Shown: positions 36,008 to 60,685 of the stretch, one piece after another
Numbering within the stretch: position 1 is the stretch's first letter
Layout: each line of letters opens with the position of its first letter
Assembly: GCA_041659365.1 (NCBI GenBank)
Contig: JBAZYH010000002.1
Location: forward strand, 16,065 to 80,064
Length of the DNA stretch: 64,000 bases
Reading direction: 5' to 3'
Origin: Minisyncoccota bacterium
Lineage (GTDB): Bacteria; Patescibacteriota; Minisyncoccia; Phycocordibacterales; GWA1-40-21
The notes under the pieces: model-generated
The model's input: the letters and a program-made list of their open reading frames with translations, nothing else
What the model was told of the DNA's origin: nothing
Database searches by the model: none
Program-made: the position numbers and the translations under genes

Positions 36008-36080
36008 GGAGGTATTTTAACATAAATCTAATATAGATTATAAAGAAAAACCCACTAGAGCAGGTTTTTCTGTTGGTGGG

Positions 36081-36230
36081 TTAAGGATAATAGTTTCCAT
36101 GATGTATTGGTCCAACATGACGTTCACGTGGCTTTTTGGGTTGTAGCCGACCAAAGTTTTTTTTGCTTTCCAAAAAACTTTGTATTGCCTGAAGTATGCG
36201 TTTTTTCAGTGGAGACATTTTCTTTTCCAT
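36081..36230 (-). CDS. small basic protein (49 aa), paralog A
   Basis: MEKKMSPLKKRILQAIQSFLESKKNFGRLQPKKPRERHVG... with an aaaggag SD. Not in the ORF track because it is under 60 aa. Confidence 0.35.
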   Translation of the reverse strand: MEKKMSPLKKRILQAIQSFLESKKNFGRLQPKKPRERHVGPIHHGNYYP

Positions 36231-36333
36231 TTAAGAACTCCTTTCTGTAAAAATAGTATCAAAAGATATTAAAAATAGTATTAAAATAAAAAAACCCACC
36301 AACAAAAACGGTAGGTTTTTCTTACTTAGTGGG

Positions 36334-36483
36334 TTAATAAACATTCTTGTTACGTCTGTTAGTCACAGGACGTCTACGTGAAGATCTGGGAAAAGGTTCG
36401 TCAGGAAGCTTCTTGCTTTCCTGATAACTTTTTATTGCCGCCATTGTTTCTTTTCTTAATGGTGATAACTTCGGCTTTTTCAT
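36334..36483 (-). CDS. small basic protein (49 aa), paralog B
   Basis: MKKPKLSPLRKETMAAIKSYQESKKLPDEPFPRSSRRRPVTNRRNKNVY with an aaagga SD. Paralogous to 36081..36230, and followed by a similar ACCCACC terminator. Confidence 0.4.
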   Translation of the reverse strand: MKKPKLSPLRKETMAAIKSYQESKKLPDEPFPRSSRRRPVTNRRNKNVY

Positions 36484-36596
36484 TGCGGATTCCTTTCTGT
36501 AAAATACAATAGCACCTGAAGGGGTAGAAGACAAGAAAAAAAATACGGCGTGTCACAAAATTCGTGACACGTCGTTTATTTTTTATTGTTATCTTC

Positions 36597-38015
36597 TTAC
36601 TTCGTCAGTATTGCCGTCCCTGTTTTGTTTTTGTAGTAGGTATATGAAAGGTTGACTGTCCTGTTGAAACAATCTGCCGGAGGGATTTCGCCAGTAGACG
36701 GATCAACTGTGTCACTTGAAAAAACAAAAGTCATATTGATTGAGAGTTTTGTCTTGACCATGGGGTTTGTTAATCCATAGTTGGCTAAGGCTTCAGCAAA
36801 TACACATTTAGGATAGGTTATTGACCATTTCCCTAGTTTTGCTGAACCAGCCGCTCTCTCAGATATTTTAAAAACACTGCTGTTGTTTGTATTCAAAGAT
36901 GAGATATCTGTAACCCCATCGAGAAACACACGTGCCGAAGTGAACTTAATATCCTTTGGAACAAGTACCGATCCGGAGAAGCTGATATAGTCGCTGTTTG
37001 TCTTGGCGAAGTTCAGCTTAACGGAAGTACTTGTAAGTTCAAAGAACATCGATTCGGGACACCATGTTGGCCAACAAGAGAAGTAGGGGTTTGAAGACAC
37101 CCCGTTGACTACTTCTTGAATACCCAGAACTTCTCCGTTTTCGTTTATATCGGCAGAAAAGATCCGGTACATCACCTGATAAGTACCGTCGTAATACGAT
37201 CCGGTATACTCGTAAGTGGTGTACAAAATCTTTGTTCCTTCCGGGTTTACGAAAGCTTCTTTCGCGTCACCCAGCTGGCTGAGAAGTTTTGCTTCTTGAC
37301 CAGGAACTAGATAATACGCTCCGCTGTAACTCGAAACGACGAAGCGACTATCATAGCTCATTGAAAGCCGATTGGCAGATATATACAATGATTTATCGGC
37401 CGAATATGGAACTGGACTAGGCACAACACCGTGATTTTGAGGGGTTCGGATGTAGATATGAATACCGTTATATCCGTTGATTGCCGAATATCCGATATCC
37501 TTATTTTCCTTTGTTAAACCCCAACAAGCATATCCATCGGCTGATAGAGCAAGACCATAACCTGGCCCAACTCGTCCACTTGAAGAATAGCTTAGTCGAG
37601 AACTTCCAGTACGATTTGACTGATAGAATGTACCCGTGTGAAAGGCAGATACTATCGGCATTTCGTCATTGGAGGAACCATAAGGATCCCGCGTTGTTTG
37701 TTGTGTTGTGTATCCGCCCATCCATTTGCTATAGAATAACCTTTGGCCGTGAGACCCGCTTGTCTCCGTTTTGTCGTACCACAGGTATTTTCCATTTACG
37801 AACGGATGGCCAAAGTTGATCTTTTGGCTTGCCAGCTGAGTAGCTAACACAATTTTTGTACCGGGGTTGTAAGAGTCTGCTCTGTAGAGAGCATTCCCGT
37901 CAGTAAAGACGATCCAGTGATCTTCTGCTTTACCGATAGTGGCGATCATAACGAACGCACACACACATAGAGCAATGATAGCTTTGATAGCTTTCATTTT
38001 TTTGTCCTTGGGCAA
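36597..38015 (-). CDS. secreted hypothetical protein, Tyr/Ser/Gly-rich (beta-rich fold likely)
   Basis: Signal peptide MKAIKAIIALCVCAFVMIATIGKA. High GC. No catalytic motif recognised. Confidence 0.5.
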   Translation of the reverse strand: MPKDKKMKAIKAIIALCVCAFVMIATIGKAEDHWIVFTDGNALYRADSYNPGTKIVLATQLASQKINFGHPFVNGKYLWYDKTETSGSHGQRLFYSKWMGGYTTQQTTRDPYGSSNDEMPIVSAFHTGTFYQSNRTGSSRLSYSSSGRVGPGYGLALSADGYACWGLTKENKDIGYSAINGYNGIHIYIRTPQNHGVVPSPVPYSADKSLYISANRLSMSYDSRFVVSSYSGAYYLVPGQEAKLLSQLGDAKEAFVNPEGTKILYTTYEYTGSYYDGTYQVMYRIFSADINENGEVLGIQEVVNGVSSNPYFSCWPTWCPESMFFELTSTSVKLNFAKTNSDYISFSGSVLVPKDIKFTSARVFLDGVTDISSLNTNNSSVFKISERAAGSAKLGKWSITYPKCVFAEALANYGLTNPMVKTKLSINMTFVFSSDTVDPSTGEIPPADCFNRTVNLSYTYYKNKTGTAILTK

Positions 38016-38067
38016 ATGCCCCGTTTTGTTTTTTTTGACATCTAATCCGAAGACTAGAGCATGACAG

Positions 38068-38125
38068 AATAGTCATAGCCAAAATATATCAATATTTTTA
38101 ATATTTTTTGGCTATGACTATTACT
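38068..38125. repeat. palindrome family 3 (TAGTCATAGCCAAAA-N-TTTTGGCTATGACTA), copy 2
   Basis: cagaatagtcatagccaaaatatatcaatatttttaatattttttggctatgactattac, in the promoter region of gene 36597..38015. Confidence 0.5.
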
Positions 38126-38299
38126 TTAAAAGTAAGATTTAATTATAAAAGAACACTCCATATTATTGGGAGTACACTATTTATACTGTATGCTTGAAAA
38201 AATGGTTGTCAATGGTATTGAGTGGAGAGGTGTTTTTAAAAGTAAAGATAAAAGAAAAACCCACCAAAGAAAAATGGTGGGTTTTTCTTTGGTGGGTGA

Positions 38300-38695
38300 C
38301 TACCTGAGACGAATCCCAGATTCACGCACCGCGCGGGTGAGGGACTTCTCGATGAGGCGGGGGAGCTTCTTGAGAAGTTTGTCGAGATGCGTCACTGCTT
38401 CGTCAAAAATCAACTGGCATTGAGGGTTAAGTTTTTCTGGGTCTTCCTCAGAAAGATTATTGATTCTCACGAGACATTCCCATACCTTCTGAAGTTCTTT
38501 GATATCCTTTTCAGAACCAAAAGACTGACGAAGGAAACGGTGACTTCTTTTTACACACATGCGGGGTATGCTGAGGCGTCCCCTATAGTGTAAATGAGGT
38601 GGTTCGGACTTTTCGTCCAAAATCATCGTTTTTAAACTGCGAACCGAACTCATGACACGGTCACGATACTCGTCCGCCATTTTTTTGATATCCAT
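38300..38695 (-). CDS. hypothetical protein (GC-rich island)
   Basis: Start at MDIKKMADEY with an aaaggag SD 7 nt upstream. The longer ORF-track start is probably read-through. Confidence 0.45.
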   Translation of the reverse strand: MDIKKMADEYRDRVMSSVRSLKTMILDEKSEPPHLHYRGRLSIPRMCVKRSHRFLRQSFGSEKDIKELQKVWECLVRINNLSEEDPEKLNPQCQLIFDEAVTHLDKLLKKLPRLIEKSLTRAVRESGIRLR

Positions 38696-38815
38696 CTGTA
38701 AACTCCTTTCAAAAGAGTGTTTGTGATTTTTGTAGATAACTTTCTGTTTATATAGTAGCAAGGGATTTGGATGGTGTCAATGGGTGGGGGTGGTAAAAAA
38801 TTAGAAATTAAAAAT

Positions 38816-38850
38816 AGAAAAACCCCGTTCACATTTCGTTACTAGGGGCT
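38816..38850. repeat. 35-nt direct repeat gaaaaaccccgttcacatttcgttactagggg, copy 1
   Basis: Identical copy at 39393..39427. Each sits immediately 3' of a minus-strand gene, suggesting a terminator/att-like role. Confidence 0.45.
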
Positions 38851-38859
38851 TTGTGTTGT

Positions 38860-39261
38860 TCACGAGCAGAGAGCACGGATTGCTGCTTTTTCGAGATCAC
38901 TTCCATCGGCAGTATGGGCGTACATTCTACGTCGTTCTTCTTGTGTGGTAGCGTTATCCAGGATTACCAGCATTGCTATTCTCTCGACCTCACTTCCACT
39001 CGGAGCATTGTTGTATACTTTATATCGCTCTTCTTGGGAGGTGGCATTATCGAGTATTATCTTCAGTGCTTCCTCTCGAATTCCGCCTGTAACAGGACTA
39101 TCGTTATATACTGACCACCGCTTATTTTGGGTGGTTGCAGCTTCGAGACGCATTTTCAACGGAAGATCATCTCCCGTTATAATTCCAAAAGCCCTAGCAA
39201 TTTTTTTCGCAGGAATACCAATCTTTTTTGCTTTTTTGACGCAATCAGCATAAGTTTTCAC
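38860..39261 (-). CDS. hypothetical protein with three internal repeats of about 31 aa
   Basis: RWSVYNDSPVTGGIREEALKIILDNATSQEE / RYKVYNNAPSGSEVERIAMLVILDNATTQEE / RRRMYAHTADGSDLEKAAIRALCS. Confidence 0.5.
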   Translation of the reverse strand: MKTYADCVKKAKKIGIPAKKIARAFGIITGDDLPLKMRLEAATTQNKRWSVYNDSPVTGGIREEALKIILDNATSQEERYKVYNNAPSGSEVERIAMLVILDNATTQEERRRMYAHTADGSDLEKAAIRALCS

Positions 39262-39392
39262 TTTTCTTTTCCTTTCTTGAGAGAGAACTTGAACTACTTA
39301 ATATAATATCAAAGTAAAATAAGTGTGTCAATGGTGGAGTGTAATGGTTCAATAACTTGGACTCAAAATATAAGTAATATAAATAAATAGAA

Positions 39393-39427
39393 AAACCCCG
39401 TTCACATTTCGTTACTAGGGGTCTTAA
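39393..39427. repeat. 35-nt direct repeat, copy 2
   Basis: aaaaaccccgttcacatttcgttactagggg. Confidence 0.45.
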
Positions 39428-39441
39428 GTATTTCACCAGTT

Positions 39442-39621
39442 CTCACTTTCTTGAAGTTTTTTATTTTTCCGACAGAAACCTCAAGATGAGGAAGGTACCT
39501 CCGAAAAAAATCCCAGCGGTCAGTTGTTGTGTCGGAGTCAATGTGATTAACCCCATTTTTGCCAAAGATCCTGCTATTAGGGCTTGAAAAGCCATGCCCA
39601 AAACAAGATAACTACTCATTG
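39442..39621 (-). CDS. small membrane peptide (about 59 aa)
   Basis: MSSYLVLGMAFQALIAGSLAKMGLITLTPTQQLTAGIFFGGTFLILRFLSEK. Not in the ORF track. Confidence 0.25.
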
Positions 39622-39905
39622 TAAACTCCTTTTTAAGCGGTTAGTTATGATTGTGATTAATGGAAGATTTATCCATAAGCACTGTTCCAGTTAGTATACT
39701 AGCATATCTGTTATAAAAAGTCAAGAGTATATTGGGCGAGAATCGTGAGTACACTTTCGGTCAGGAATAAATTTTTGTTATTATAAAAAAGAGATGGGCG
39801 GAATCGGTCTCAAATCACTAAGTATTTTAGAATTATTAAATTCTAAAATACAAAGTGTTTGCGACCCCGACTCGCAAGATTTTTTGCTAAAAATCTTTGG
39901 CTCCG

Positions 39906-39954
39906 TCTTTCGATTCTCACATGAAAGTGCTACCCAGCACTTTCTCATCTCCAC
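39906..39954 (+). other. tRNA-3'-end-mimic element A (T-loop-like TTCGATTCTCAC + hairpin GAAAGTGCT-ACCC-AGCACTTTC + TCATCTCCACC)
   Basis: The hairpin is identical to that of element B (55904-55925). The terminal TCTCCACC is the inverted complement of the 3' end of the tRNA fragment at 39999..40026. A palindromic terminator lies between them. Confidence 0.4.
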
Positions 39955-39998
39955 CTAAAAAACAAAAAGCACCTCTTACGAGGTGCTAATGTTTTTAC

Positions 39999-40026
39999 AG
40001 GTGGAGATGGCGCGAATCGAACGCGC
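39999..40026 (-). other. orphan tRNA 3' fragment (T-arm GCGCG-TTCGATT-CGCGC + acceptor CATCTCC-A-CC), likely an att-site remnant
   Basis: A perfect T-arm and acceptor 3' strand are present on the minus strand. No matching 5' half (GGAGATG) was found in the adjacent sequence read. Confidence 0.45.
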
Positions 40027-40189
40027 GTGCAAATGATTGTTCCCAATGCTTCTACAAAGTATAGTTTGTTTAGTTTCGCCCGAAAGCGAATTTAAAATTA
40101 TAGACTATAAATAAACAAAACATCTATAATTCGATTCTCTAATTTTCTTTGTGTATCGAGAAGGTACACAATATATCCTGAAAATATAT

Positions 40190-40262
40190 CACCCTAAAAC
40201 ATTTTGTAAACAAAATGTTCGGGCGATCAATTTTTGTATTAACAAAAATTGATTTAGCCCCA
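40190..40262. repeat. 75-nt direct repeat (CCCTAAAACATTTT..GTTCGGGCGATCAATTTTTGTATTAAxAAAAATTGATTTAGCC), copy 1
   Basis: Shares its 5' module with family 2 and contains the palindrome atcaattttt..aaaaattgat. Second copy at 40468..40540. Confidence 0.5.
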
Positions 40263-40467
40263 ACAGCTTATCAGAAATAGGCTGCTAGTGTGTCGCTTAG
40301 GCTAAAGCGTAAGCGAAAGTAAGGTCCTTGGTACCAAAAAATGGTGACACAATGCCAGCTACTTTTGAAGAAATGCTATTTGCATTTGAAGTTCCTTGAT
40401 AGATTTAAGAGTTCACAAGGTTGCTCTACTTTGCGCAAGAGAGAACGGGACCAAATGTCTAGGCCGA

Positions 40468-40540
40468 TCATCCCCCTAAAACATTTTTTACTAAAAATGT
40501 TCGGGCGATCAATTTTTGTATTAATAAAAATTGATTTAGC
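40468..40540. repeat. 75-nt direct repeat, copy 2
   Basis: ccctaaaacattttttactaaaaatgttcgggcgatcaatttttgtattaataaaaattgatttagcc. Confidence 0.5.
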
Positions 40541-40542
40541 CA

Positions 40543-40818
40543 CTATTTTGAATCATACCTTATTTTGTTTATATATTCATCAAGAAATTTCTTTTTTTCT
40601 CTTGATCCCCATAAACTTTTTAAAAATCTTTCTCTATTAAAAGCATCTGCTTTGTTTTTGAAAGTTTCTTTATGCATAAGAACAAAAGGTATTCTTTTTG
40701 ATGTTGATTTAACATCTCCTTTATTATGTCTCTCTAATCTTTCTTCTATATTAGATGTACAACCAACATAAAGTTTTTTGTCTTTTTCGCTAAATAATAT
40801 ATAGACAAAATAAGGCAT
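40543..40818 (-). CDS. GIY-YIG family nuclease
   Basis: YFVYILFSEKDKKLYVGCTSNIEERLERHNKG is the GIY-YIG motif. Confidence 0.7.
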   Translation of the reverse strand: MPYFVYILFSEKDKKLYVGCTSNIEERLERHNKGDVKSTSKRIPFVLMHKETFKNKADAFNRERFLKSLWGSREKKKFLDEYINKIRYDSK

Positions 40819-40822
40819 GATT

Positions 40823-41269
40823 CTATTCGTTTTTCAATGTTCTTCTTATCTCTCGGTCAGATTCGCGTTTCTTGATAGATTCGCGTTTATCTTTATTCTT
40901 CTTACCTCGAGCTAAGCCAAGCTCTACTTTTAGCTTATGCCCCATATTATACACCGATAATGCTACTATTGTCAAACCATTTTGATTTTCTGTGCCGGCA
41001 AGCCTTTTAAGCTCCTTTTTGGTAAGCAAGAGTTTTCTATTTCTTCGTGGATCGTAATCTTGAGGTGTGTTTTTAGGTTGAAGGGGAGTAATACCAGCTC
41101 CTATAAGAAAGGCTTCATTTCCTCGAATTGTCGCATAAGCCCCATCAAGTGTTATTCGCCCAGCTTTTATTGCTTTAACTTCAAAACCGAGTAGCTCAAT
41201 ACCAGCCGTGATTTTTTCAAGGATTTCATAATTAAAATATGCTTTTCTGTTTTCTGCAAAATTTGCCAT
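40823..41269 (-). CDS. smpB: SsrA-binding protein SmpB
   Basis: NRKAYFNYEI..E.GIEL.G.EVKAIK.G...L..AYA.I..NEAFL......PL.P. matches the SmpB family, with a basic C-terminal tail. Confidence 0.85.
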   Translation of the reverse strand: MANFAENRKAYFNYEILEKITAGIELLGFEVKAIKAGRITLDGAYATIRGNEAFLIGAGITPLQPKNTPQDYDPRRNRKLLLTKKELKRLAGTENQNGLTIVALSVYNMGHKLKVELGLARGKKNKDKRESIKKRESDREIRRTLKNE

Positions 41270-41295
41270 AAGTTGTATTTGTATAGTAACAAAAT

Positions 41296-41345
41296 AATAG
41301 GGAATTGAGAAATAAAAAACCGCTCGCCTAGATGAACTAGGCGAG
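41296..41345. terminator. rho-independent terminator for the minus-strand gene 41365..41652
   Basis: On the minus strand: ccgctcgcctag-ttcat-ctaggcgagcgg followed by TTTTTT. Confidence 0.6.
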
Positions 41346-41364
41346 CGGGGTGGTGGAAGACGTT

Positions 41365-41652
41365 TTACTTTTTTTTCTTAGTGTCTGTCTTCCTCCGGAC
41401 TTCGATCGTGTGGTGTGTTGCCAGTGCGGCAATACCAGCAACTGCAGTAAGGAAGGGGGCGACGATCGCGGCTACTGTACCGATTGCTGCTCCCTTGATA
41501 AGGGGTAATTGCAGTTCGATTTTGCCACTCGGATTACTGATCACGAGTTCGTGGGCCCCTCCTTTTTCGATGATCTGTTTCGCTTTAGCTAACAAACGGT
41601 CAGCACTTACTTTGACCTGCTTTTCGATAATTTTGCGATTTAACTTCGCCAT
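41365..41652 (-). CDS. hypothetical small protein with a C-terminal hydrophobic segment
   Basis: 95 aa, high GC. C-terminal GAAIGTVAAIVAPFLTAVAGIAALA is hydrophobic, followed by a KKKK tail. Confidence 0.45.
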   Translation of the reverse strand: MAKLNRKIIEKQVKVSADRLLAKAKQIIEKGGAHELVISNPSGKIELQLPLIKGAAIGTVAAIVAPFLTAVAGIAALATHHTIEVRRKTDTKKKK

Positions 41653-41958
41653 TTTATCTCCTCCTTCTTTTTGTTTTGTTTCCTATCCAAAAAAAATATT
41701 AAACTATTAAATAATAAAAGTCAATAGTATTTTTTAGAACATTACTTAAGCTTTTAGAACAGCTTGACAAATATTTTAAAACATGTATTATGTTATGCAG
41801 ATTATTGTGTTCGTTGACGTTCACATTTAACCTATTAGTTTCAAATTTTAAACGAAAGGAGGCTTAACCGAAAGGATAAGTCACTAGTTTGGTGTTTGTC
41901 GATGTTTGTTGAAGGTATCAAAAACGTTTCAAGTTCAAATCTCAAAAGGAGAATCAGA

Positions 41959-43686
41959 ATGAAGAAGTTGTCCAAGTTGTTCGTGACCTTACTGGTTGGC
42001 GTTTTTGCCCTCCAGACACAGGCAGTGTCCTATGTGAAGTCGGCACCTCTCTCGGAGGTGGTCGGGACTCGGGTTGGTTTGGTTCAGGATGGTGCTGTGC
42101 AGGAACTGCCCATCATCACCTGGGGTGGCGATATCGCTACCATCGTTGCGAACGGTAATCAGGTCAACACGGCGGTCGGCAGCCTCTTCGACAAGGAGGG
42201 GTTGAAGTTTAAGATTGTCCGTGAGGACGTCTTTCCGAAACAGTTGGAAGGCTACATCAGTGGGAAGACCCCGTATTTGCGGGGAACCGTTGGTCAGATC
42301 AACATGGCCCTCGAGCTCCTGTCGAAGGATCCTCGAACCAAGCCGGTTGTTGTTTACACTCTCACCAGGTCAGTTGGAGGAGATTGCCTTGCTGTAAAAC
42401 AGGGGATCAATACGATCAAAGACTTGAAGGGAAAGACTATTGCAGTCAATGCATACAGCCCTCATGTGGAATTCCTCGGAACGGTGCTCGATAGTGCCGG
42501 GCTGATGATGACCGATGTGAAGATTGTGTGGACAAAAGATTTGACTGGTTCGAAGGAAACTCCGGGCCAAGCATTTCTCAGTGATCCGACTGTCGATGCG
42601 TGTTTTGCTATCTCACCTGATGCCAATGCTTTAACGAGCGGTGGCAAAGTGGGAGATGGATCCGAGGGCTCTGCAAAGGGTGCTCGAATTCTCTTTTCAA
42701 CAAAGACAGCAAGTAACGTGATTTATGACGTTTATGCTGTACGCGCCGATTATCTGGCCTCACACCCTGATAACGTTGCGAAGTTCGTCCATGCTTTGCT
42801 TATGGCAGAAGAGAATCTGTCCTTGCTCATGGGAAATTCGAGTACGCGAAAGGCGGAGTACGACAAAACACTGGCGGCGGCTGGAAAGATTATTCTCGAC
42901 AGTGAACAGGCGACAGGTGATATCATTGGTTTGTATGGTGATTGCGAATATGTTGGCTACGTGGGGAACATCAAGTTCCTTGCTACACCGACGGAAGTTC
43001 GTCGCCTCGAAACCTTGTCGTCTGAAATCCAGGAAGCGTTTATCGGTCTTGGGTTGTTGTCTGGTAAGGCGGAGCTTGCGAAAGCAGGTTTTGATTATGA
43101 AGCTCTGAAGAAGGGCTTGATCAAGACAGTTGCTGTGGTGGCTCCGAAATTCCAGGCGGCCGAAGTCGCGAAGGTTATTGATCAGAAGTCGAAACAGGGA
43201 GACAGTGGCTCCATTTTCAGCTTCGAAATCCTGTTCAGCCCAAATCAGAATACATTTAACTCTGAGTTGTATAAGGCAGATTTCGATCGTGCAATCGAAC
43301 TCGCAGCCACATACGGTGGAGCGATTCTCACAATCGAAGGACATGCTGATCCGATGCAATATATCGACAAGAAAGCGGCGAATGCACCCGAGCTGGTGCT
43401 TTCACGTCTTCGTCAGTCGGCAAAGAATCTTTCGTTGACGCGAGCAATCGCTCTACGCGAGAGTCTTCTCAATTATGGCAAACTGAAGATGGTCATTATG
43501 GACCCGTCGCAGTTTGCCGTAGTTGGTCACGGCTTTGAGAAACCGAAAACCGGCCTCAAGAATGGTGAGCCTGTTCGTCCGAAAGATCAGCAGGAGTGGG
43601 CATCGAACATGCGAGTCGTGTTCGAGTTAATTCCTGTTGGTGAAGTGGAGTCCCAGGTGTTTACGCCGGCAGGAGGTGGAAAATGA
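41959..43686 (+). CDS. secreted fusion protein: NMT1/SsuA-like periplasmic-binding domain + C-terminal OmpA-like domain
   Basis: Signal peptide MKKLSKLFVTLLVGVFALQTQA with an aaaggag SD. GKTIAVNAYSPHVEF.. is SBP-like. The C-terminal ILTIEGHADP...NLSLTRAIALRESL...VVGHGFEKP is an OmpA/MotB C-domain motif. Confidence 0.55.
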   Translation: MKKLSKLFVTLLVGVFALQTQAVSYVKSAPLSEVVGTRVGLVQDGAVQELPIITWGGDIATIVANGNQVNTAVGSLFDKEGLKFKIVREDVFPKQLEGYISGKTPYLRGTVGQINMALELLSKDPRTKPVVVYTLTRSVGGDCLAVKQGINTIKDLKGKTIAVNAYSPHVEFLGTVLDSAGLMMTDVKIVWTKDLTGSKETPGQAFLSDPTVDACFAISPDANALTSGGKVGDGSEGSAKGARILFSTKTASNVIYDVYAVRADYLASHPDNVAKFVHALLMAEENLSLLMGNSSTRKAEYDKTLAAAGKIILDSEQATGDIIGLYGDCEYVGYVGNIKFLATPTEVRRLETLSSEIQEAFIGLGLLSGKAELAKAGFDYEALKKGLIKTVAVVAPKFQAAEVAKVIDQKSKQGDSGSIFSFEILFSPNQNTFNSELYKADFDRAIELAATYGGAILTIEGHADPMQYIDKKAANAPELVLSRLRQSAKNLSLTRAIALRESLLNYGKLKMVIMDPSQFAVVGHGFEKPKTGLKNGEPVRPKDQQEWASNMRVVFELIPVGEVESQVFTPAGGGK

Positions 43687-44426: not shown

Positions 44427-44451
44427 TCGGTTAAATGTGAACAAATAGTGC

Positions 44452-46149: not shown

Positions 46150-46172
46150 TTAATAGTGGTGGTTGTGTGCTG

Positions 46173-46207
46173 TGGCCCGTTTCCTTTCGAGGAAACGGGC
46201 CACTTTT
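46173..46207. terminator. rho-independent terminator
   Basis: tggcccgtttcc-tttcga-ggaaacgggcca followed by a T-run. Confidence 0.55.
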
Positions 46208-46391
46208 ACTTTAGCGAAAGTATGTCGCGCAATCGTCCATTGAAGTGCGACGAAAACTAATAGACAGTATCCTTATTATGAGTTGTATTTAATAGTTTAT
46301 GTCACCCTTGACAAAAACTTTAAATATGATATCAATCATGCAGAAGTATCTTTGTAAAAACGTTGAATAAACAGAAAAAGGAGAACAGATA

Positions 46392-48041
46392 ATGGAAACA
46401 GAAATAAATGGGAGATCTTTTCCCGTTTTGCTTTGTTGTACTGTGCTGCGAATGATTTTTCGTAAGCCAGAAATTGACCCAAGCTTTTTCACCTCGGTGG
46501 CAAACTTGGTTAAGGTAAGGACTGACAGTAAGTTTTATGATGTGTCACCTAAGACTGTTGGATCTATACTGGGTGTTAATGAAAAGGATGGTCCTGGATG
46601 GACAGTTGTTTCTTTTCTGCTTGACGGTGGAAAAGAATACAAGGGCCGTTTTCGTACAGGTGGGGAAATCTCACTCGATAATGGCGCTTGTGACCTAGAG
46701 CCGGCTGAACAAGAACAAAGGTGTTATGCCTTGATCAACTTGGCTGGTCAGCTTGTCGAAGTCTTCGTGCCTTTCCTAGGTGTTGAACCTGGAGATACTC
46801 TCAAGCTCGAAAAAAGTACCATGAAAGTGGTAGCGTTTGAAAAAACGACTCCGTCTGGTGGTATTGCTTTTGTCTCACGTATCATCAGTGATACTGTGGC
46901 AGAAGTTGATTATACCGGTGGACGCAGAACAGTTTTCATAGGTAAATTTGCGGGCAAACTAGAGACAAATGGACGGGTCGTTCTTGATCAAAGTGGAAGT
47001 GTAATTATTGAAAACTTTGGTCTTGATGATGATTCATTCAAGCTCGATGGTGCGACACATGTTTCTTGGAATGACATCAAGGGTCAAGAAGAGGCGATTG
47101 GAGATCTTAAAATGTCTATTGAGCTTCCCCAAAGGAAGCCTGAACATTACAAGTATCTTGGTTTGAAACCTTCTGCCGGTTTTCTCTTGTATGGTCCTCC
47201 TGGGTGTAGTAAGACAATGCTTGCTAAAGCAGTCTATACCTCGGTTATGGAAACCTGCAAAGAGAAAGGGATTGAAAATCCTTCGGGAGGTTTCCTTCTT
47301 GTCAGTGGTCCGGAAATTCTCGACAAGTTTGTCGGAGTTCCGGAAGCACTCATTCGTCATCTTTTTGCCAAAGCCCTAATCTTCTACAAGAGGACAGGGT
47401 TTAAGGCGACGATTGTGATTGATGAGTGTGAAGCAATTCTCGCAAAGAGAGATTCGGGTATCAGCAGTGATGTGCTTCGGACGATTGTCCCTGCCTTCAT
47501 CGCACAAATGCAGGGAGTGAGGGAGTCGGGAGCGATTGTTCTTCTGCTGACCAACAAACCAGAAGTCTTGGATAGTGCAGCAATCCGTGATGGGCGTATT
47601 AACGATTGGATTGAAGTAAAGCGTCCGACGAAGGAAGTTGTCCGAGCAATCTTTCTGAATAACATGAAAGCTGTGCCGATTTCTGAGACCACAAGTCTTG
47701 AGAGATTGGCAGATCTTTGTGCAGAGAAGTTGTTCTCTCCGGAGTTGGTTATCTTTGATATCGTAAGGGCTGGTGGCGAGTCGGTAAAGTTTACCCTGGC
47801 AAACATTGTCAGTGGTGCAATGATACCAGCAATCGTCGAAGCAGCTCAGAAGTTCGCACTCAAGAGGGAACTTCAAAAGTATGAACCTTCTGAAGGTATC
47901 AGAGAGGAAGATGTTATCTTTGCTGTTCAACAAAAGTTTAAAAGGAGTTTCGCTTCTGATCACGAGGAAGCTTTGAGGGATTTTGCAAAAAACTTCAAGG
48001 ATGTCGTCGGGATTCAGAAGCTCAAACAAGCGCAGGTGTAA
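46392..48041 (+). CDS. AAA+ ATPase (classic clade) with an uncharacterised 250-aa N-terminal domain
   Basis: Walker A FLLYGPPGCSKTMLAKAV, Walker B TIVIDECEAI, and a second region of homology LDSAAIRDGRIND. WNDIKGQEEAIGDL resembles the FtsH/CDC48 linker. Confidence 0.8.
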   Translation: METEINGRSFPVLLCCTVLRMIFRKPEIDPSFFTSVANLVKVRTDSKFYDVSPKTVGSILGVNEKDGPGWTVVSFLLDGGKEYKGRFRTGGEISLDNGACDLEPAEQEQRCYALINLAGQLVEVFVPFLGVEPGDTLKLEKSTMKVVAFEKTTPSGGIAFVSRIISDTVAEVDYTGGRRTVFIGKFAGKLETNGRVVLDQSGSVIIENFGLDDDSFKLDGATHVSWNDIKGQEEAIGDLKMSIELPQRKPEHYKYLGLKPSAGFLLYGPPGCSKTMLAKAVYTSVMETCKEKGIENPSGGFLLVSGPEILDKFVGVPEALIRHLFAKALIFYKRTGFKATIVIDECEAILAKRDSGISSDVLRTIVPAFIAQMQGVRESGAIVLLLTNKPEVLDSAAIRDGRINDWIEVKRPTKEVVRAIFLNNMKAVPISETTSLERLADLCAEKLFSPELVIFDIVRAGGESVKFTLANIVSGAMIPAIVEAAQKFALKRELQKYEPSEGIREEDVIFAVQQKFKRSFASDHEEALRDFAKNFKDVVGIQKLKQAQV

Positions 48042-48248
48042 GATATCTGTGCTCTGAAATAAGTCGCATCCGTTCCGAAAGGGCGGGTGCGATTTTCTTT
48101 TATTTTCCTTTTTTACTTATAGACATTTTTTAATATTAATTATCTAATTTATGCTCTTGACAAAATCTTTAATTCGTGTATAGTACTATACAGATGAAGT
48201 CCTTTGAAAACTTCATGTAAAAACTAAGGAAAAAAGAGAAAGGGATTT

Positions 48249-49094
48249 TTGATGAGTATCACCAAAGAGAAAGGTCAGAAAACGCTGGTTAACAGCGAAG
48301 AGGCCGCCTCAAAGGTTGCTCTGTCTGAAACAATTCAGCACCCCATGACAATATGGCCCCCAGCTTTTGGGATAGCTGCAGGTATTGGACTTACCGTTTT
48401 AGGAATGGTGTCTATGCCTGTGGCGATTACTATTGGTTCGGTCTGTGTCCTGGGTGGAGCGACGAATTGGGCTGTCAGATTTTTTGGTGGAAAGGATGCG
48501 TATATTCAAAAATACTACGCGAAACTTCACGAACAATTTGAGAGACTCAAAGAAGAAAAAGTCGTATCACTGGAAAAAGATCTCAAGAGTTTGAAATGTA
48601 GCCAAGGACGTGAGCAAGTCTCAGAGTTTGAGGCGAAGTTTGGAAATCTCGTTGATGTCTTAAAAATGGTTTTGTCCGAAGGCGAGCTAGCTTTTGGGCG
48701 TTACCTCGGTGCTGCAGAAACTGTTTACACGAGTGGAATAGAAACTCTCGTCCGAGTCGTCACAATCCTCACTAGTATCGAAGAGATCGATCGTGTGGAT
48801 TTGGAAGAAAGGATTACTGGACTTAAGTCCATCAAAGAAAAAAGTGGGTCTGAAACCCGCCACATGAATACTTTGCTTGAAAGAGCGAAGCTTTATGATG
48901 ATGGAATGAAAGAGGTTGAAGAACTTCTCGTTTCTAACGAGGAAGCTTTAACTACTCTCGATAAAACAGCCGGTGCTATTGGAAGGATAAAAGTTTGTGG
49001 TACATCAGATGATCTGAGTATGGCTATGGCTGATTTGTTAAGTCTAATAGGTAGGATCACACAGCGTGCCAATGTTGGCACGCTTGAATTGTAA
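48249..49094 (+). CDS. XpaC-like membrane protein (2 TM + coiled coil)
   Basis: Two N-terminal TM helices followed by a long coiled-coil region. Architecture and TelA adjacency mirror the B. subtilis xpaC-yaaN pair. Confidence 0.35.
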   Translation: MMSITKEKGQKTLVNSEEAASKVALSETIQHPMTIWPPAFGIAAGIGLTVLGMVSMPVAITIGSVCVLGGATNWAVRFFGGKDAYIQKYYAKLHEQFERLKEEKVVSLEKDLKSLKCSQGREQVSEFEAKFGNLVDVLKMVLSEGELAFGRYLGAAETVYTSGIETLVRVVTILTSIEEIDRVDLEERITGLKSIKEKSGSETRHMNTLLERAKLYDDGMKEVEELLVSNEEALTTLDKTAGAIGRIKVCGTSDDLSMAMADLLSLIGRITQRANVGTLEL

Positions 49095-49130
49095 ACAAAA
49101 AAACTCATTCTCAAGAAAGGGAAAAAGAGT

Positions 49131-50345
49131 ATGTCTCAACAGGTACAAGAACAAGTGAAACCGCTTCAGGTTCCTCAAGACGATCAGATCAGAAGTGATC
49201 TTGGTTTCGGTGAGGAGGTTCAGCAGACGTTGTCTGTTGATCCGGTAGTTTCGAAAACTGCCGATGATTGGTTGGAGAAAATCCTGTCCCGCGATTTGTC
49301 GAGCCCTGCGATGCAGGAGGAGATTCGTGGTGCAGTGGAAGGTGCGGGTGAAAAAGTCCAGCAGACAATGGCTCGTAAGAGTGGTTTGCTGAAGGGACAG
49401 ATTCGCACGCTCGCTTCCCAGGCTGAGGGTAATCCGGTGGCGAAGTCGCTGATTGACCTCAAGGTTCAGGTTGATAAAATCAACCCGAATAATTTCAAGT
49501 TACTCGCGCCCGGAGGTTTTGGGCGTGCATTTACTTGGATTCCCGGAGTTGGTACCACGATGAACAAGTACTTCACTCAGTGGCAAAGTGCGGGTAGCGT
49601 GATTGATTCGATCGTCATGCAGATCCGTGAAGGCTCGGGTGGGTTACAGCGTGATATCGGAATTCTTCGGAACGATCAGGTCGACATGCGCACGGAGATT
49701 CTCCGTCTGCAAAAGGTCATTCAGATCCTGATGTTGGTCAATGAAAAACTGACGATCAAAGTCGATGCGATGGAGATCGGGAGTGATCAACGGCGGTTCC
49801 TGGAGGAAGAAATTCTTTTCAGTTTGCGCCAGAGGATCGGTGACCTCCAGGAAAGCCTGGCGGTCAACCAGCAGGGTGTCATGGCCTACGAGTTTGTTAT
49901 TCGGACGAACCGTGAGCTCATTCGTGGCGCCAAGCGCTGTGAGAACATTACCGTTCGTGCACTTGAAGTTGCTACTGTCTTGGCTATGGCCTTGGCAAAT
50001 CAACGGATGGTGTTGCGTTCGATTCAGGCCGTCGACGAGACTACCTCGCAACTCATGTTGCAGAATGCAGCTCAGCTCAAGACTCAAGGGACGCAGATTT
50101 TTAAACAGTCTGCTAGTCAGTCGATCAGCATGGATACCTTGAAGAAGGTTTATGCCGACCTCGATTCGGCCTTCGAAGAGATGGCTACATTCAAGCAGAA
50201 AGCTTTGCCCGAAATGGCACAGCGTATGGCTGCGATGAGTGAGATGGCGAAAGGGGCTGAGAAGAAAATCAAGCGCATGGAAGATGGCAATACCGCAAGG
50301 CCGAGTATCGAGTTTGATCTCGAGCCGACCGATGCAGCTGCCTAA
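49131..50345 (+). CDS. TelA-like (toxic anion resistance family) protein
   Basis: About 400 aa, coiled-coil rich, typical TelA/YaaN size and composition. Assigned by recollection of the family; confidence is moderate. Confidence 0.45.
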   Translation: MSQQVQEQVKPLQVPQDDQIRSDLGFGEEVQQTLSVDPVVSKTADDWLEKILSRDLSSPAMQEEIRGAVEGAGEKVQQTMARKSGLLKGQIRTLASQAEGNPVAKSLIDLKVQVDKINPNNFKLLAPGGFGRAFTWIPGVGTTMNKYFTQWQSAGSVIDSIVMQIREGSGGLQRDIGILRNDQVDMRTEILRLQKVIQILMLVNEKLTIKVDAMEIGSDQRRFLEEEILFSLRQRIGDLQESLAVNQQGVMAYEFVIRTNRELIRGAKRCENITVRALEVATVLAMALANQRMVLRSIQAVDETTSQLMLQNAAQLKTQGTQIFKQSASQSISMDTLKKVYADLDSAFEEMATFKQKALPEMAQRMAAMSEMAKGAEKKIKRMEDGNTARPSIEFDLEPTDAAA

Positions 50346-50434
50346 TCCGGCGTTCAAGATTCATGAACTCCCCAGGGGCACAGTGCCCTTGGGGAGATTA
50401 TCACCAAAAAGAAACAAGAAAGAGAGAGCGTTCA

Positions 50435-51499
50435 ATGAAGAAGATCGTGTTTATGTTTTTGGCCGCGTTGGCCATTTGTTTGCCGATGCAGTCGTTTGGC
50501 GCCGAGAAATCGGTGTTGGACAAAGTCTATCGTTACGTCTGGTCTCACTACGTTTTGTGGGAGCCCTGGCAGTATATCGCGGACTCCGGCATCATGAAGA
50601 AGTGGGCCGACAAGTACGGCGTGAAAGTCGAGATCGTTTTGATCAATGACTACGTCCAGTCCATCAACCAGTACACCGCAGGCGAGGTGGTTGGTTGTGC
50701 AATGACGGAAATGGACGCACTTAACATGCCCGCAGCAGGCGGCGTCAAGTCGGACATTCTGGTTGTTGGCGATTATTCAAACGGCAATGACGGCATCGTG
50801 CTGATGAATGGCAAAAGCCTGAAGGATTTAATCGGACGAAACAGTTTGATTGTCCAAGGCTCGGTGTCATCTTACTTACAATCCAGAGGGGTCAAACTCA
50901 TTGGACATAAGGACAGCGAAGTCGTCGAAGTCAACACTTCGGATGCTAACATCGGTGCTGCGTTTGCAAGCTCTGGTTCAAAAGGAGCCTGCGTGACGTG
51001 GAATCCGATCTTGATGCAGGTGCGAAATCTACCGAACGCCACGATGGTGTTCGATTCCTCCAAGATACCTGGTGAAATCCAGGATCTCATGGTTGTACGT
51101 AGCGACGCACCGGATAATGTCAAGAAGGCACTCGTCGGTGCGTGGTATGAAGCAATGACGATCATGTTTGGTCAGGGTAAGCAAACGGATGAGGCAATCG
51201 AAATCATGGCAAAGTCTGCCGGTGGTACTGTTGCGGAGTTCAAGGCACAGCTCAGGACCACATATGTTTACAACAAACCGGCGGATGGAGTTAAGTTCGT
51301 CGAAGATCCGGAAGTCAAGCGGATCATCAAAGAGGTGGCGGAGTTCAGTTTTGATCACGGACTCATGGGACAAAATGTTAGGGCGGCAACCGATGTCGGG
51401 GTTCAGTTCCCGGATGGTACTGTCTATGGCAATCCCAAGAACGTCAAACTCCTTTACCGGAGTGATTACATGAAGCAGGCAGCGGCCGGCGGACTCTGA
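50435..51499 (+). CDS. ABC transporter substrate-binding protein, NitT/TauT (SsuA/NMT1) family
   Basis: Signal peptide MKKIVFMFLAALAICLPMQSFGA, SBP fold. Upstream of the matching permease and ATPase. Confidence 0.65.
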   Translation: MKKIVFMFLAALAICLPMQSFGAEKSVLDKVYRYVWSHYVLWEPWQYIADSGIMKKWADKYGVKVEIVLINDYVQSINQYTAGEVVGCAMTEMDALNMPAAGGVKSDILVVGDYSNGNDGIVLMNGKSLKDLIGRNSLIVQGSVSSYLQSRGVKLIGHKDSEVVEVNTSDANIGAAFASSGSKGACVTWNPILMQVRNLPNATMVFDSSKIPGEIQDLMVVRSDAPDNVKKALVGAWYEAMTIMFGQGKQTDEAIEIMAKSAGGTVAEFKAQLRTTYVYNKPADGVKFVEDPEVKRIIKEVAEFSFDHGLMGQNVRAATDVGVQFPDGTVYGNPKNVKLLYRSDYMKQAAAGGL

Positions 51500-51756
51500 G
51501 AAGAGTCTCGCTGACTGATGCAAAACAACAAACCTCTTCGGAGTCCTTAGGGATTCTGGAGAGGTTTTTTCATGTTCAAAATATGTTAAAAACACATAAA
51601 TACATGAATATATTTTGTAATACTTTTAAGACTCTTTACATATTGACATTTCTATTATTTCATGTATACTTGATAATAGGAAATTGTTAAGGGCAGGGTC
51701 TTCGATCCTGTTTTTTGAAAACTTTGTAACAAACAAAAAAAGAGAAGGAATTCAGA

Positions 51757-52602
51757 ATGAAGAAAATCAATTGCAGGATACCCATTTTTTGGGGTATCCA
51801 TGCGAGTCCTGGAGAGTTTTGGGGGAGGATCTTTGGTCTTATCCCGATCGTACTCTTGCTTGTGACGTATTTTCACTTTTCTCATGATCGTCACGAGACT
51901 AACCCCGACGACAAACTTATGCCGTCGATTAGTCAGATGTATCATGAGGTGGTGAATTATGTCACTGTGCCGGATAAACGTTCTGGCAAGGTTCTGTTTA
52001 TTGAGGACACAAAGGCAAGTCTGACAAGGCTTGGTCTCGGTGTTTCCATTTCGGCGGTGTTTGGTTATGTGCTCGGAATTCTTATGGGGTTATACCCTGG
52101 ATTTCGGTCACTATTTAACACCATTATCACAACACTCTCAAACATTAACCCACTTATGATGCTTGTAATCATCCTCGTGGCACTTGGAATAGGAGAACTA
52201 TCAAAAATCTTTCTCATTGTCTTTGGGATCGGGATACCGCTTACTCGAAGTATTGAGGAGGCAGTTGAAAAGATTCCACAAGAACTGATTGTCAAACAAG
52301 AAACACTCGGGGCATCACAGCTCGGTATAATCTACCGGTTGATAATGCCTCAGATGCTTCCGCGTTTGATTGATCTTGTTCGGATGTCTTTGGGTGCAGC
52401 GTGGATCTTCGTGATTGCTGCAGAAGCGATTGCTTCAACTTCGGGTTTAGGATATCGAGTGTTTCTCCAGCAGAGATACATGAATATGTCCCTGATCATA
52501 CCGATTGTTATCTTCATAACCATAGTTGCTTTTAGTAGCGACTGGATATTAAAGGCAGTACTGAAGTTGCGTCGGTTCAAATGGTATTCGCCTGGTAACT
52601 AA
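51757..52602 (+). CDS. ABC transporter permease, NitT/TauT (SsuC/TauC) family
   Basis: Six TM helices with an EAA-like loop (..EAIASTSGLGYRV..). Confidence 0.8.
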   Translation: MKKINCRIPIFWGIHASPGEFWGRIFGLIPIVLLLVTYFHFSHDRHETNPDDKLMPSISQMYHEVVNYVTVPDKRSGKVLFIEDTKASLTRLGLGVSISAVFGYVLGILMGLYPGFRSLFNTIITTLSNINPLMMLVIILVALGIGELSKIFLIVFGIGIPLTRSIEEAVEKIPQELIVKQETLGASQLGIIYRLIMPQMLPRLIDLVRMSLGAAWIFVIAAEAIASTSGLGYRVFLQQRYMNMSLIIPIVIFITIVAFSSDWILKAVLKLRRFKWYSPGN

Positions 52603-52610
52603 GGAGTTTA

Positions 52611-53549
52611 ATGATGAATGGAAAACTAGAACCTAATGGGAAGGCTATCTGTATCGATAGTGCTTATCATGGCTACGGACCAAAGGTTGTTCTTGGAAAT
52701 GTCGATCTGCAGGTTAAGAGCGGAGAGTTTCTCTGCCTTGTTGGACCTTCAGGTTGCGGAAAGTCGACCTTGCTTCGTCTGATTACCGGACAAGAACGGA
52801 TTCAGAAAGCCAGACGTTTTGACGTCTTGGGACAGAAAGTTGGATTGCCGGATTATCGTCGGGGTGTGGTATTTCAGAATTATAGTTTGGTACCACACCT
52901 TACTGTGCTCGAGAATGTTTTGCTTGGTCTCAAATATCAGGCAAGCTTCCGTAATCTCATTTCTCCGAAGTGGAGGAGTGAGGCGAAGAAGAAAGTCCTC
53001 GAGTATCTTGAGAAAGTACGTTTGTCTGATGCGGCGGACCGGTATCCGAATGAGTTGTCTGGTGGAATGCGTCAGAGGGTATCGATTGCCCAAACGCTGA
53101 TCACTATCGACCTTTTTGGAATGCCGAAGATTCTCTGTATGGATGAGCCGTACGGTGCACTTGACCCGGCGACACGGGAAGAGATGCAGATTTTCATTCT
53201 GGAGCTATGGGAGAAGTATGGTATTACGGTGGTGTTTGTGACTCATGATATCGAGGAGGCAGTCTTTCTCGGTACACGAGTTATTATTTTGTCACAGTAC
53301 TGGAGGTCAGACTTGCCTTTGGAAAAGCAGGCAGGATCACGTATTGTTCATGACATACCTTTGCCGAGGCATGCTCTGTCCACTAAGGTTAAACTTACGA
53401 CAGAGTTTGCGATGACGGTCGCCGAAATAAGGGAAACTGGGTTCAGTGGTACCAAACGTCGGCACGTCAACGAGTTCAATCTCAATCATCCCGATTCGTT
53501 TCAAACTCTTGAAATGGGTGAGAATATGGAGGTTAAGAAAATCGCCTAA
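52611..53549 (+). CDS. ABC transporter ATP-binding protein, NitT/TauT (SsuB/TauB) family
   Basis: GPSGCGKSTLLRLI, LSGGMRQRVSIAQTL, LCMDEPYGALD, and the H-loop VTHD. Confidence 0.85.
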   Translation: MMNGKLEPNGKAICIDSAYHGYGPKVVLGNVDLQVKSGEFLCLVGPSGCGKSTLLRLITGQERIQKARRFDVLGQKVGLPDYRRGVVFQNYSLVPHLTVLENVLLGLKYQASFRNLISPKWRSEAKKKVLEYLEKVRLSDAADRYPNELSGGMRQRVSIAQTLITIDLFGMPKILCMDEPYGALDPATREEMQIFILELWEKYGITVVFVTHDIEEAVFLGTRVIILSQYWRSDLPLEKQAGSRIVHDIPLPRHALSTKVKLTTEFAMTVAEIRETGFSGTKRRHVNEFNLNHPDSFQTLEMGENMEVKKIA

Positions 53550-53581
53550 TTCCTTCGGATGGAACTGTTTGTTGCGAGTAC

Positions 53582-53619
53582 GTCCCCCACTTTAGCGAAA
53601 GCTAAGGTGGGGGATTTTT
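53582..53619. terminator. rho-independent terminator at the right edge of the GC-rich island
   Basis: gtcccccactttagc-gaaa-gctaaggtgggggattttt. Confidence 0.6.
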
Positions 53620-53661
53620 AATATTTATAAAATTATCAATTGGTGCTATATTAGACACATT

Positions 53662-60650: not shown

Positions 60651-60685
60651 AAAAAAATCACACTGTTTCAGTGGATTTTTAAATG

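Follow-up and report, generated by a model that had tools for sequence, protein, structure and literature searches.

Hundreds of genomic islands have been reported in Patescibacteria, with most transfers having occurred between Patescibacteria themselves and with GIY-YIG proteins listed among the transferred genes (PMC12455944, mSystems 2025). Here, we describe one locus of this kind in a Minisyncoccota bacterium (GenBank assembly GCA_041659365.1, contig JBAZYH010000002.1, positions 16,065 to 80,064), using the whole stretch of 64,000 nucleotides, hereafter called the window. In the window, the native genes for tmRNA (ssrA) and SmpB (smpB) are flanked by two blocks of foreign base composition: a left block of orphan genes (36.05–39.7 kb) and a right block (41.3–53.6 kb), which carries a ten-gene envelope and ABC-importer module between smpB and ftsH. 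Like the islands of the above study, the locus represents compositionally deviant acquired DNA in a streamlined genome of the candidate phyla radiation (CPR); unlike in that study, the insertion site, age, mosaicism, and gene content are resolved here for one island. The ten-gene module is not described there, and TelA and tmRNA are not mentioned. In our view, the island is genuine and acquired, but its kind is already known and it is fairly ordinary.

Islands associated with tRNA and tmRNA genes are classically inserted at the 3′ end of the gene, are flanked by direct repeats (attL and attR), and carry an integrase gene. The left block resembles them in lying directly downstream of the ssrA 3′ end, at a variable locus. 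Unlike in the classical islands, no integrase match and no att repeats were found, and the main block lies away from the tmRNA end.

Parts of the right block also have described counterparts. In Firmicutes, TelA- and XpaC-type proteins form envelope-stress pairs, such as xpaC-yaaN of Bacillus subtilis. In the window, a small helical protein with two transmembrane helices is likewise encoded directly before a TelA-family protein, but it shows no significant XpaC match, and the pair is part of a larger transporter/OmpA/VWA module. The urea-carboxylase-associated systems of TIGR03427 share with the window a binding protein above the family cutoff and a permease and an ATPase of the NitT/TauT type; they differ in that no urea carboxylase or allophanate hydrolase gene lies near the window cluster, and in that two extra binding paralogues are fused here to OmpA-like domains. 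An eight-gene version of the module is present on the Vibrio megaplasmid pSEA1 (NZ_LC081338, HXI41_RS00995-RS01030), with amino acid identities of 24–47%. It shares with the window the ABC ATPase, the fusion of a solute-binding protein (SBP) with OmpA, the VWA protein, the second SBP/OmpA protein, the helical hypothetical protein, TelA, the SBP termed "putative urea ABC transporter", and the permease, but it is without the AAA+ ATPase and DUF4342 and has the ABC ATPase at its front. Six Vibrio plasmids match the fused SBP-OmpA protein over its full length, pSEA1 being the only one that was examined for the module. The papers found on pSEA1 deal with the role of this plasmid in antibiotic-resistance transfer. 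No paper describing the module or its function was found in a limited literature search.

Two GC-rich blocks on either side of ssrA-smpB

Base composition clearly separates the genes of the two blocks from those of the host. GC content at third codon positions (GC3), calculated for each open reading frame (ORF), was 0.22 ± 0.04 with a maximum of 0.30 in the host (n = 50), whereas all ORFs of the island (36.6–39.3 kb and 41.4–53.5 kb) ranged from 0.35 to 0.61, corresponding to z = 3.3–9.8 against the host. These z-scores and a sliding GC profile confirmed the abrupt shift in GC content and codon usage at about 36.05 kb and about 53.6 kb, which had been noted in a first-pass annotation made from the sequence alone. 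The same annotation overstated the GC content of the island as about 50%: the mean was 45.8% in the right block (41.3–53.6 kb) and 40.2% in the left block (36.04–39.7 kb), compared with 29–36% in host segments, and 50–51% was reached in only some 1-kb sliding intervals of the island. The tetranucleotide profile, which that annotation had suggested as a check together with the GC profile, also set the right block apart: its composition-normalised usage correlated with that of the host at r = 0.31–0.48, as against 0.66–0.83 for host segments among themselves. Expression-linked codon bias was ruled out as the source of the high GC3, because the highly expressed host genes for S12, L20, and IF3 reach only 0.27–0.30. 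In deviating from the host in both composition and codon usage, the region behaves as a horizontally acquired genomic island in the general sense.

The segment between the blocks (39.7–41.3 kb) returns to 34% GC and, as had been described, bears smpB and a GIY-YIG ORF, both recognised by Pfam. The supposed orphan tRNA 3′ fragment (39999–40026) in fact belongs to a complete tmRNA gene of 477 nucleotides, of which it forms the 3′ end. This gene matched Rfam RF00023 with 84 bits (gathering score, 47) over the full length of the model (positions 1–374 of 374), so that the proposed search for the full tRNA behind the fragment ends at a tmRNA instead of a tRNA. The tag peptide ANSISSKVAGIVSPFFGTKDLTFAYALA* is encoded at 40383–40297 and resembles the tags of relatives, and the acceptor stem, as read from the sequence, is GGGGAUG/CAUCUCC with a G3:U pair of the alanine type. 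The features by which a tmRNA is recognised are all present, namely a tag frame with a hydrophobic degron end, the G3:U70 acceptor, and an adjacent smpB, which is located 348 nucleotides upstream of ssrA. The tmRNA is 92–98% identical to that of the relative L084 (L numbers denote the loci compared here). ARAGORN, unlike Rfam, did not detect this tmRNA in the window, probably because the gene contains an insertion of about 65 nucleotides.

An FtsH scan of GTDB species representatives identified the host as a member of the Paceibacteria ("Taylorbacteria"-like). Thirteen relatives have smpB(−) and ftsH(+) side by side in divergent orientation, without anything in between; the cluster was found at this site in 0 of the 13, and the tmRNA lies directly downstream of smpB in most of them. 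L084 and L085, by contrast, carry the cluster at the smpB/ftsH site as the window does. The ancestral order in this low-GC Paceibacterota host is infC ... ssrA(−) smpB(−) ftsH(+). Since relatives keep ssrA, smpB, and ftsH tightly adjacent, two separate blocks flank the native ssrA-smpB pair. The comparison with island-less relatives, another check suggested by the first-pass annotation, thus confirmed the foreign block but contradicted a single island divided by a host-like insert, as ssrA-smpB represents the ancestral state, with foreign DNA to its left and to its right. We consider it probable that the blocks were acquired as two independent stretches, the right one as the ten-gene module and the left one as strain-specific cassettes. 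For annotation, the locus is a caution in two respects: a complete tmRNA carrying a 65-nucleotide insertion escaped ARAGORN and was taken for an orphan piece of a tRNA, and a native ssrA-smpB pair was mistaken for an insert within an island.

The left block consists of six monocistronic orphan genes on the minus strand, and promoter-like and terminator-like sites accompany every one of them. No match was obtained for its proteins in Pfam, PADLOC, and PHROGs, four short ORFs having been scanned against PHROGs only. Among 5.8 billion proteins, the largest left-block protein (in its 472-residue form) has, besides itself, one distant homologue, which shows 37% identity, is encoded on a 2.7-kb contig, and gives no indication of origin. 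Homology between the window and L084 ends exactly at the tmRNA 3′ end. In five relatives, the infC-ssrA interval ranges from 3.1 to 6.7 kb, and the ORFs within it differ in size and number. These observations mark the tmRNA neighbourhood as a variable locus; they fit a hot spot downstream of ssrA, with the left block as a strain-specific set of orphan cassettes directly downstream of the ssrA 3′ end.

Occurrence of the module in other genomes

The cluster of the right block was found in several other genomes. L082, a Paceibacterota of about 50% GC, carries the same cluster in the same order, and its cluster GC3 equals its flank GC3. L092, a low-GC Paceibacterota, also carries it in the same order, at a different site and again GC-rich relative to the flanks. 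In the non-CPR loci L091 and L093, of which L093 bears the label Verrucomicrobiae, the cluster has the composition of its flanks and contains an extra gene for a 2OG-Fe oxygenase (L091, 7473–8372; L093, 7508–8410). In the CPR versions L082, L084, and L092, a DUF4342 gene likewise accompanies the cluster. A metagenome scan with TelA yielded only four loci. Two further additions to the cluster were observed: a 146-residue lipoprotein gene in L084 (4896–5336) and a DUF433/DUF5615 gene pair in L091 (15248–15810), which is probably a toxin-antitoxin pair.

The proteins of the window cluster consistently resembled the CPR versions more than the non-CPR ones. In a rough neighbour-joining tree of the AAA proteins, built without support values, the window sequences were placed among CPR sequences, and the non-CPR clade was nested within CPR diversity. 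The earlier statement that the island genes have no CPR-like signature is therefore incorrect for the right block, which shares its cluster and gene order with several Paceibacterota and has its nearest relatives there. What is conserved is a set of eight to ten genes, predicted to encode binding proteins tethered to peptidoglycan, a VWA lipoprotein, a TelA pair, and a NitT/TauT importer; an AAA+ unfoldase is an optional member. Because versions of the module are spread over Patescibacteria, Verrucomicrobia-like genomes, and Vibrio plasmids, it could be studied in a cultivable Vibrio.

The copies also resemble one another in how GC3 is distributed over the genes. Across the nine cluster genes, per-gene GC3 of the window (41.9–53.5 kb) correlated with that of L092 (5655–17033) at r = 0.98 and with that of L085 at r = 0.91, but with the GC-rich versions at only 0.36–0.49. 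TelA and the binding protein always had the highest GC3 within the cluster.

Origin and age of the right block

The right block has been inherited together with its flanks for some time. Between the window and L084, divergence at four-fold sites was 0.33 for smpB and 0.24–0.29 for the three left genes of the cluster. For the FtsH N-terminus, identity between the window and L085 is 75%, but no island-less relative exceeds 58%. The smpB-like divergence of the cluster and the FtsH similarity argue that the block entered the ancestor of a sub-clade, comprising the window, L084, L085, and L087, and was co-inherited thereafter. In that ancestor, it would have been inserted in the short divergent spacer between smpB and ftsH, and it would have been inherited vertically since, with partial amelioration. 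Partial amelioration fits the intermediate GC3 of the right block (0.4–0.6), which lies between that of the host (0.22) and those of GC-rich carriers (0.55–0.77). As the sharing by the sub-clade indicates, a streamlined low-GC CPR genome can hold a 12-kb acquired module for a long term. Its coding sequence stays compositionally distinct, and its AT-rich spacers bear near-consensus promoters of the sigma-70 type.

The right block is also a mosaic. Precisely at the AT-rich spacer between the OmpA and AAA genes, identity to L084 drops from 0.88 to 0.70. The AAA+ cassette (46130–48160 in the window; 9917–11789 in L084) is hypervariable among close relatives: the alleles of the window, L084, and L085 are mutually only 65–69% identical, as compared with 90–93% for the neighbouring genes in L084. 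The drop at the spacer and the divergent AAA alleles show cassette replacement, in which single cassettes, clearly the AAA+ gene, were exchanged later by recombination at the spacers.

With regard to the source, we infer that the donor was most likely a GC-richer member of Patescibacteria. Host relatives span GC3 values of 0.24–0.59, so that GC-rich donors exist nearby in the same clade. Entry was probably by recombination of imported DNA and not by a self-integrating element; no integrase or transposase match and no att duplication were found.

Several points weigh against this account. No high-identity donor was found, and because the best match outside the sub-clade shows only 48–70% protein identity, both the direction and the source of the transfer are inferred. 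Third-position changes, polarised with L085 as an outgroup near saturation, numbered 70 from GC to AT and 62 from AT to GC, an outcome that depends on the GC content of the outgroup. Neutral amelioration alone does not predict the GC3 match of r = 0.98 with the independently located L092 copy. The junction between the left block and ssrA (39.6–40.0 kb) is without independent assembly support, since exact-protein look-ups for SmpB, P0121, and GIY-YIG gave no match. Finally, the functional model of the module described below draws on domain homology alone.

Alternative explanations

It is conceivable, though we think it rather unlikely, that the GC-rich state and the GC3 profile have been kept by recurrent, cassette-wise recombination with an allele pool shared among GC-richer Patescibacteria, the module moving between phyla. 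The swapped AAA+ unfoldase cassette would be a visible example of such recombination. If this is true, the locus offers a view of ongoing gene flow among co-occurring CPR bacteria and not of a one-off ancient transfer.

We find it improbable that the cluster is native to the lineage, that is, an old, vertically inherited Paceibacteria set that was relocated beside smpB and whose GC content is held by selection or by a gene-specific process. Such a history would accord with the predominance of CPR sequences in the AAA family, with residence of the cluster since before the window/L085 split, with the lack of a clear GC-to-AT excess (70 versus 62, against a saturated outgroup), and with the per-gene GC3 pattern common to L092 and L085. 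It is at odds, however, with the smpB/ftsH site, which is empty of the cluster in the 13 relatives, with GC3 values 4–10 standard deviations above host genes, highly expressed ones included, and with an oligonucleotide signature unlike that of the host. Moreover, the cluster matches the genome in GC-rich carriers, which suggests that its composition tracks the genome and that the cluster has no GC bias of its own. Acquisition from a GC-richer relative is thus the reading that we prefer over a native origin.

According to the first-pass annotation, a single island had integrated in steps at an att site of the tRNA type, with the tRNA-like fragment and the repeats as att remnants. The left block indeed adjoins the ssrA 3′ end, where L084 homology stops, and 44 nucleotides away from it there is a partial copy of that end in inverted orientation. 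In L004 and L008, direct copies of the last 10 nucleotides of their own tmRNA occur 145 and 166 nucleotides downstream, respectively, and these may be att-like remnants. In the window, however, the tmRNA 3′ end has no direct repeat: patterns of 22 nucleotides (up to 3 mismatches) and 13 nucleotides (up to 2 mismatches) derived from it matched the gene alone. No integrase or recombinase family match was obtained among the island ORFs scanned with Pfam, PHROGs, and PADLOC, and no integrase or transposase among those submitted to Pfam, the four short left-block ORFs having been compared with PHROGs only. Between ssrA and the 12-kb right block lies smpB, the block occupying the smpB/ftsH spacer. 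The direct repeats, reported as 75 nucleotides long, do exist as copies of 72 nucleotides with 92% identity, but one lies inside ssrA and the other just 5′ of it, so that they flank neither block; being absent from relatives as well, they were rejected as att sites. With no att duplication, no integrase match, and the right block at smpB/ftsH, stepwise integration at a tRNA-type site is very unlikely.

The foreign-composition DNA is genuinely part of this genome. Two single-run Logan unitigs, L001 (window 41228–54330) and L096 (35164–38841), were 100% identical to the window and together cross three of the four transitions, at 36.05, 41.3, and 53.6 kb. L084, which derives from a different ENA sample, contains smpB (97% amino acid identity), a 93-nucleotide spacer, DUF4342, and the cluster. 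In L085, which was assembled from a JGI sample, the cluster is followed by a 108-nucleotide spacer and a low-GC ftsH (GC3 0.18). Both show the same GC contrast as the window. Although GC transitions are classic chimera breakpoints and the Logan unitigs end at 38841, 41228, and 54330, an assembly or binning chimera, in which DNA of a GC-rich organism was joined to a low-GC CPR contig, is extremely improbable and largely refuted save for the 39.6–40.0 kb junction, as unitigs traverse the other transitions, the same junctions recur in assemblies of other samples that have diverged to 72–88% nucleotide identity, and the block spacers are AT-rich like host intergenic DNA, with near-consensus sigma-70-type promoters.

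Genes and predicted function of the module

The features of the locus are listed in Table 1. Within the right block, four near-consensus promoters of the form TTGACA-16-TATnnT (sigma-70-type) and four strong terminators were predicted, which would split the block into about four to five transcription units. The spacers have a GC content of 0.27–0.38. A terminator scan also recovered the right-border terminator noted earlier, at 53582–53615.

Table 1 Features of the ssrA-smpB-ftsH locus and of the two GC-rich blocks, in window coordinates
Feature	Position	Strand	Evidence or remark
Single-gene islet, 214-residue orphan	18354–18998	+	GC3 0.43; no family match
Left GC-richer block	36040–39700	−	40% GC; GC, GC3
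Small basic ORF, 49 residues, paralogue of 36334–36483	36081–36230	−	Gene call in Logan contig L096
Small basic ORF, 49 residues from internal ATG, paralogue of 36081–36230	36334–36483	−	ORF list
Secreted Tyr/Ser-rich orphan protein, 466 residues from ATG	36597–37997	−	ORF statistics, homologue search
Hypothetical protein, 131 residues	38300–38695	−	GC3 0.49; ORF list
Protein of 133 residues with internal repeats of ~36 residues	38860–39261	−	GC3 0.35; ORF list
Hydrophobic peptide ORF, 52 residues	39461–39619	−	ORF list
Inverted, interrupted partial copy of ssrA 3′ end (TTCGATTC ... CATCTCCACC)	39909–39955	+	Alignment; inverted repeat I3
Terminator hairpin, bidirectional, directly 3′ of ssrA	39968–39987		Terminator scan
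ssrA (tmRNA), native	39999–40475	−	Rfam RF00023; tag translation
Two-hairpin repeat, copy 1	40188–40259	−	~65-nucleotide insertion within tmRNA, 3′ of tag frame
Two-hairpin repeat, copy 2	40470–40541	−	Adjoins tmRNA 5′ end and GIY-YIG ORF
GIY-YIG nuclease ORF, 91 residues	40543–40818	−	GC3 0.14; Pfam PF01541, 54 bits; PHROG homing-endonuclease match
smpB, native	40823–41269	−	Pfam, 165 bits; 97% amino acid identity to L084
Right GC-richer block, ten-gene envelope and ABC-importer module between smpB and ftsH	41300–53620	+	GC 45.8%
DUF4342 small membrane protein	41365–41652	−	Pfam, 60.7 bits; own terminator 41348–41320
Secreted NMT1/SsuA-like solute-binding domain fused to C-terminal OmpA-like peptidoglycan-binding domain	41959–43686	+	Promoter 41764–41791
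VWA-domain lipoprotein	43683–44426	+	Pfam; lipobox LVSAC and metal-ion-dependent adhesion site (MIDAS) D-x-S-x-S read from sequence
Membrane-anchored solute-binding-like and OmpA-like domains	44575–46149	+	Promoter 44499–44526; terminator 46172–46203
Classical-clade AAA+ ATPase, VCP/Cdc48- and Mpa-like	46392–48041	+	Walker A GPPGCSKT; pore loop KFVG; terminator 48061–48095
Helical-bundle protein of 280 residues, two transmembrane helices, unnamed family	48252–49094	+	Promoter 48157–48184
TelA-family protein	49131–50345	+	Pfam PF05816, 176.8 bits
Secreted solute-binding protein, TIGR03427 (putative urea ABC transporter binding protein)	50435–51499	+	Terminator 51530–51567
ABC permease, TauC/NtrB type	51757–52602	+	PF00528, 69 bits; promoter 51643–51670
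ABC ATPase	52611–53549	+	PF00005, 96 bits; followed by right-border terminator 53582–53615
ftsH, native, right flank of insertion	53662–55626	+	GC3 0.22
Single-gene islet	59824–60393	−	GC3 0.39; no family match

The binding protein of TIGR03427 (354–378 residues) scored 411.8 bits against an NCBIfam cutoff of 333.9. It is encoded together with a BPD_transp_1 permease and an ABC ATPase, the combination that identifies a NitT/TauT-family importer, the permease being of the TauC/NtrB type and the ATPase of the NtrCD type. The three proteins would thus form an ABC importer of this family, with a binding protein of the urea or short-chain-amide type. The urea name of TIGR03427 stems from the genomic context of other members, and no urea carboxylase gene is present here. 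The two paralogous binding-protein domains may be held to peptidoglycan by their OmpA-like domains, and the module also includes the MIDAS-bearing VWA lipoprotein.

TelA matched PF05816 well above the cutoff of 30 bits, over model positions 14–332 of 332. The 280-residue protein encoded before it belongs to a family of 921 representatives at E ≤ 0.001, and its predicted structure is all-helical (predicted local distance difference test score, 71). A Foldseek search of the PDB with this model gave generic helical bundles only, with no match at E < 0.1. The assignment of this protein to XpaC (PF10112) was unsupported, the best E being 0.046 for one distant family member. The best PDB matches of the AAA+ protein were the D2 modules of VCP-like and Cdc48 proteins. 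An identity with the Pup-proteasome ATPase Mpa/ARC (TIGR03689) was rejected, the score being 209 bits against an equivalog cutoff of 504.75. A MoxR-VWA system of the Bat/NorQD type was likewise rejected, because the AAA protein belongs to the classical FtsH/Cdc48/PAN clade (PF00004) and no MoxR was among the Pfam and NCBIfam matches. PADLOC gave generic domain matches only (ZorB/MotB to OmpA and TRIP13/IetA to AAA), and the module was not assigned to a known anti-phage defence system. For either block, no phage or defence link was found with PADLOC, PHROGs, and viral contigs.

From these domains, we propose that membrane-associated TelA, its helical partner with two transmembrane helices, and a substrate-threading AAA+ unfoldase may maintain or regulate the importer and its peptidoglycan-bound binding proteins; the physiological role of the module is, in this sense, a prediction from protein families.

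Repeats and minor features

The 72-nucleotide element of the ssrA region folds as two hairpins (z = −7.2), with a compensatory change between the copies. Its first copy is missing from the tmRNAs of eight relatives (L084 and seven others), and no further copy was found elsewhere in the window or in the 86 loci searched. Both copies stand directly 5′ of a native GGG(G/T)GAT motif, as would a small mobile element that favours particular sites. The repeat is a small local mobile or duplicated element and not an island border. Next to its second copy, the GIY-YIG ORF is bracketed by 28-nucleotide inverted repeats (I2; 40550–40577 and 40796–40823) and is absent from L084.

A stretch of 165 nucleotides at 39791–39955, which includes the partial copy of the ssrA 3′ end, is strongly structured (fold z = −7.9). 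It lies on the plus strand, is convergent with ssrA, shares the bidirectional terminator with it, and is absent from L084. Its ends resemble a tmRNA acceptor: the 5′ end has GAGAUGG, and the 3′ end has UUCGAUUC and then CAUCUCCACC. An extended −10-like sequence, TGTTATTAT, precedes the stretch, which may represent a small tRNA-like RNA or what is left of a tmRNA 3′ end.

In the left block, the two basic paralogues of 49 residues share the N-terminal motif K-x-SPL-x-K...AI-x-S-x-x-ESKK, as read from their translations. A terminator module (D5) is duplicated at 36285–36320 and 38250–38285, and a 55-nucleotide downstream module (D3) at 38812–38866 and 39385–39439; the orphan genes look like cassettes sharing regulatory ends.

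Outside the two blocks, the single-gene islets previously described as GC-rich are real, but their deviation is modest (Table 1). About 290 nucleotides separate the islet on the minus strand from the 3′ end of tRNA-Ser(GCT) (60685–60772), downstream of which it lies; this position echoes that of the left block downstream of ssrA. A tRNA-Ile gene (anticodon TAT, 55979–56054) follows ftsH and is found downstream of ftsH in nearly all relatives (L002–L025), with varying strand and distance. In the low-GC relative L025, a single ORF (7844–8458) is an outlier in GC3 (0.53 versus 0.26) and lies about 600 nucleotides from the tmRNA 3′ end.

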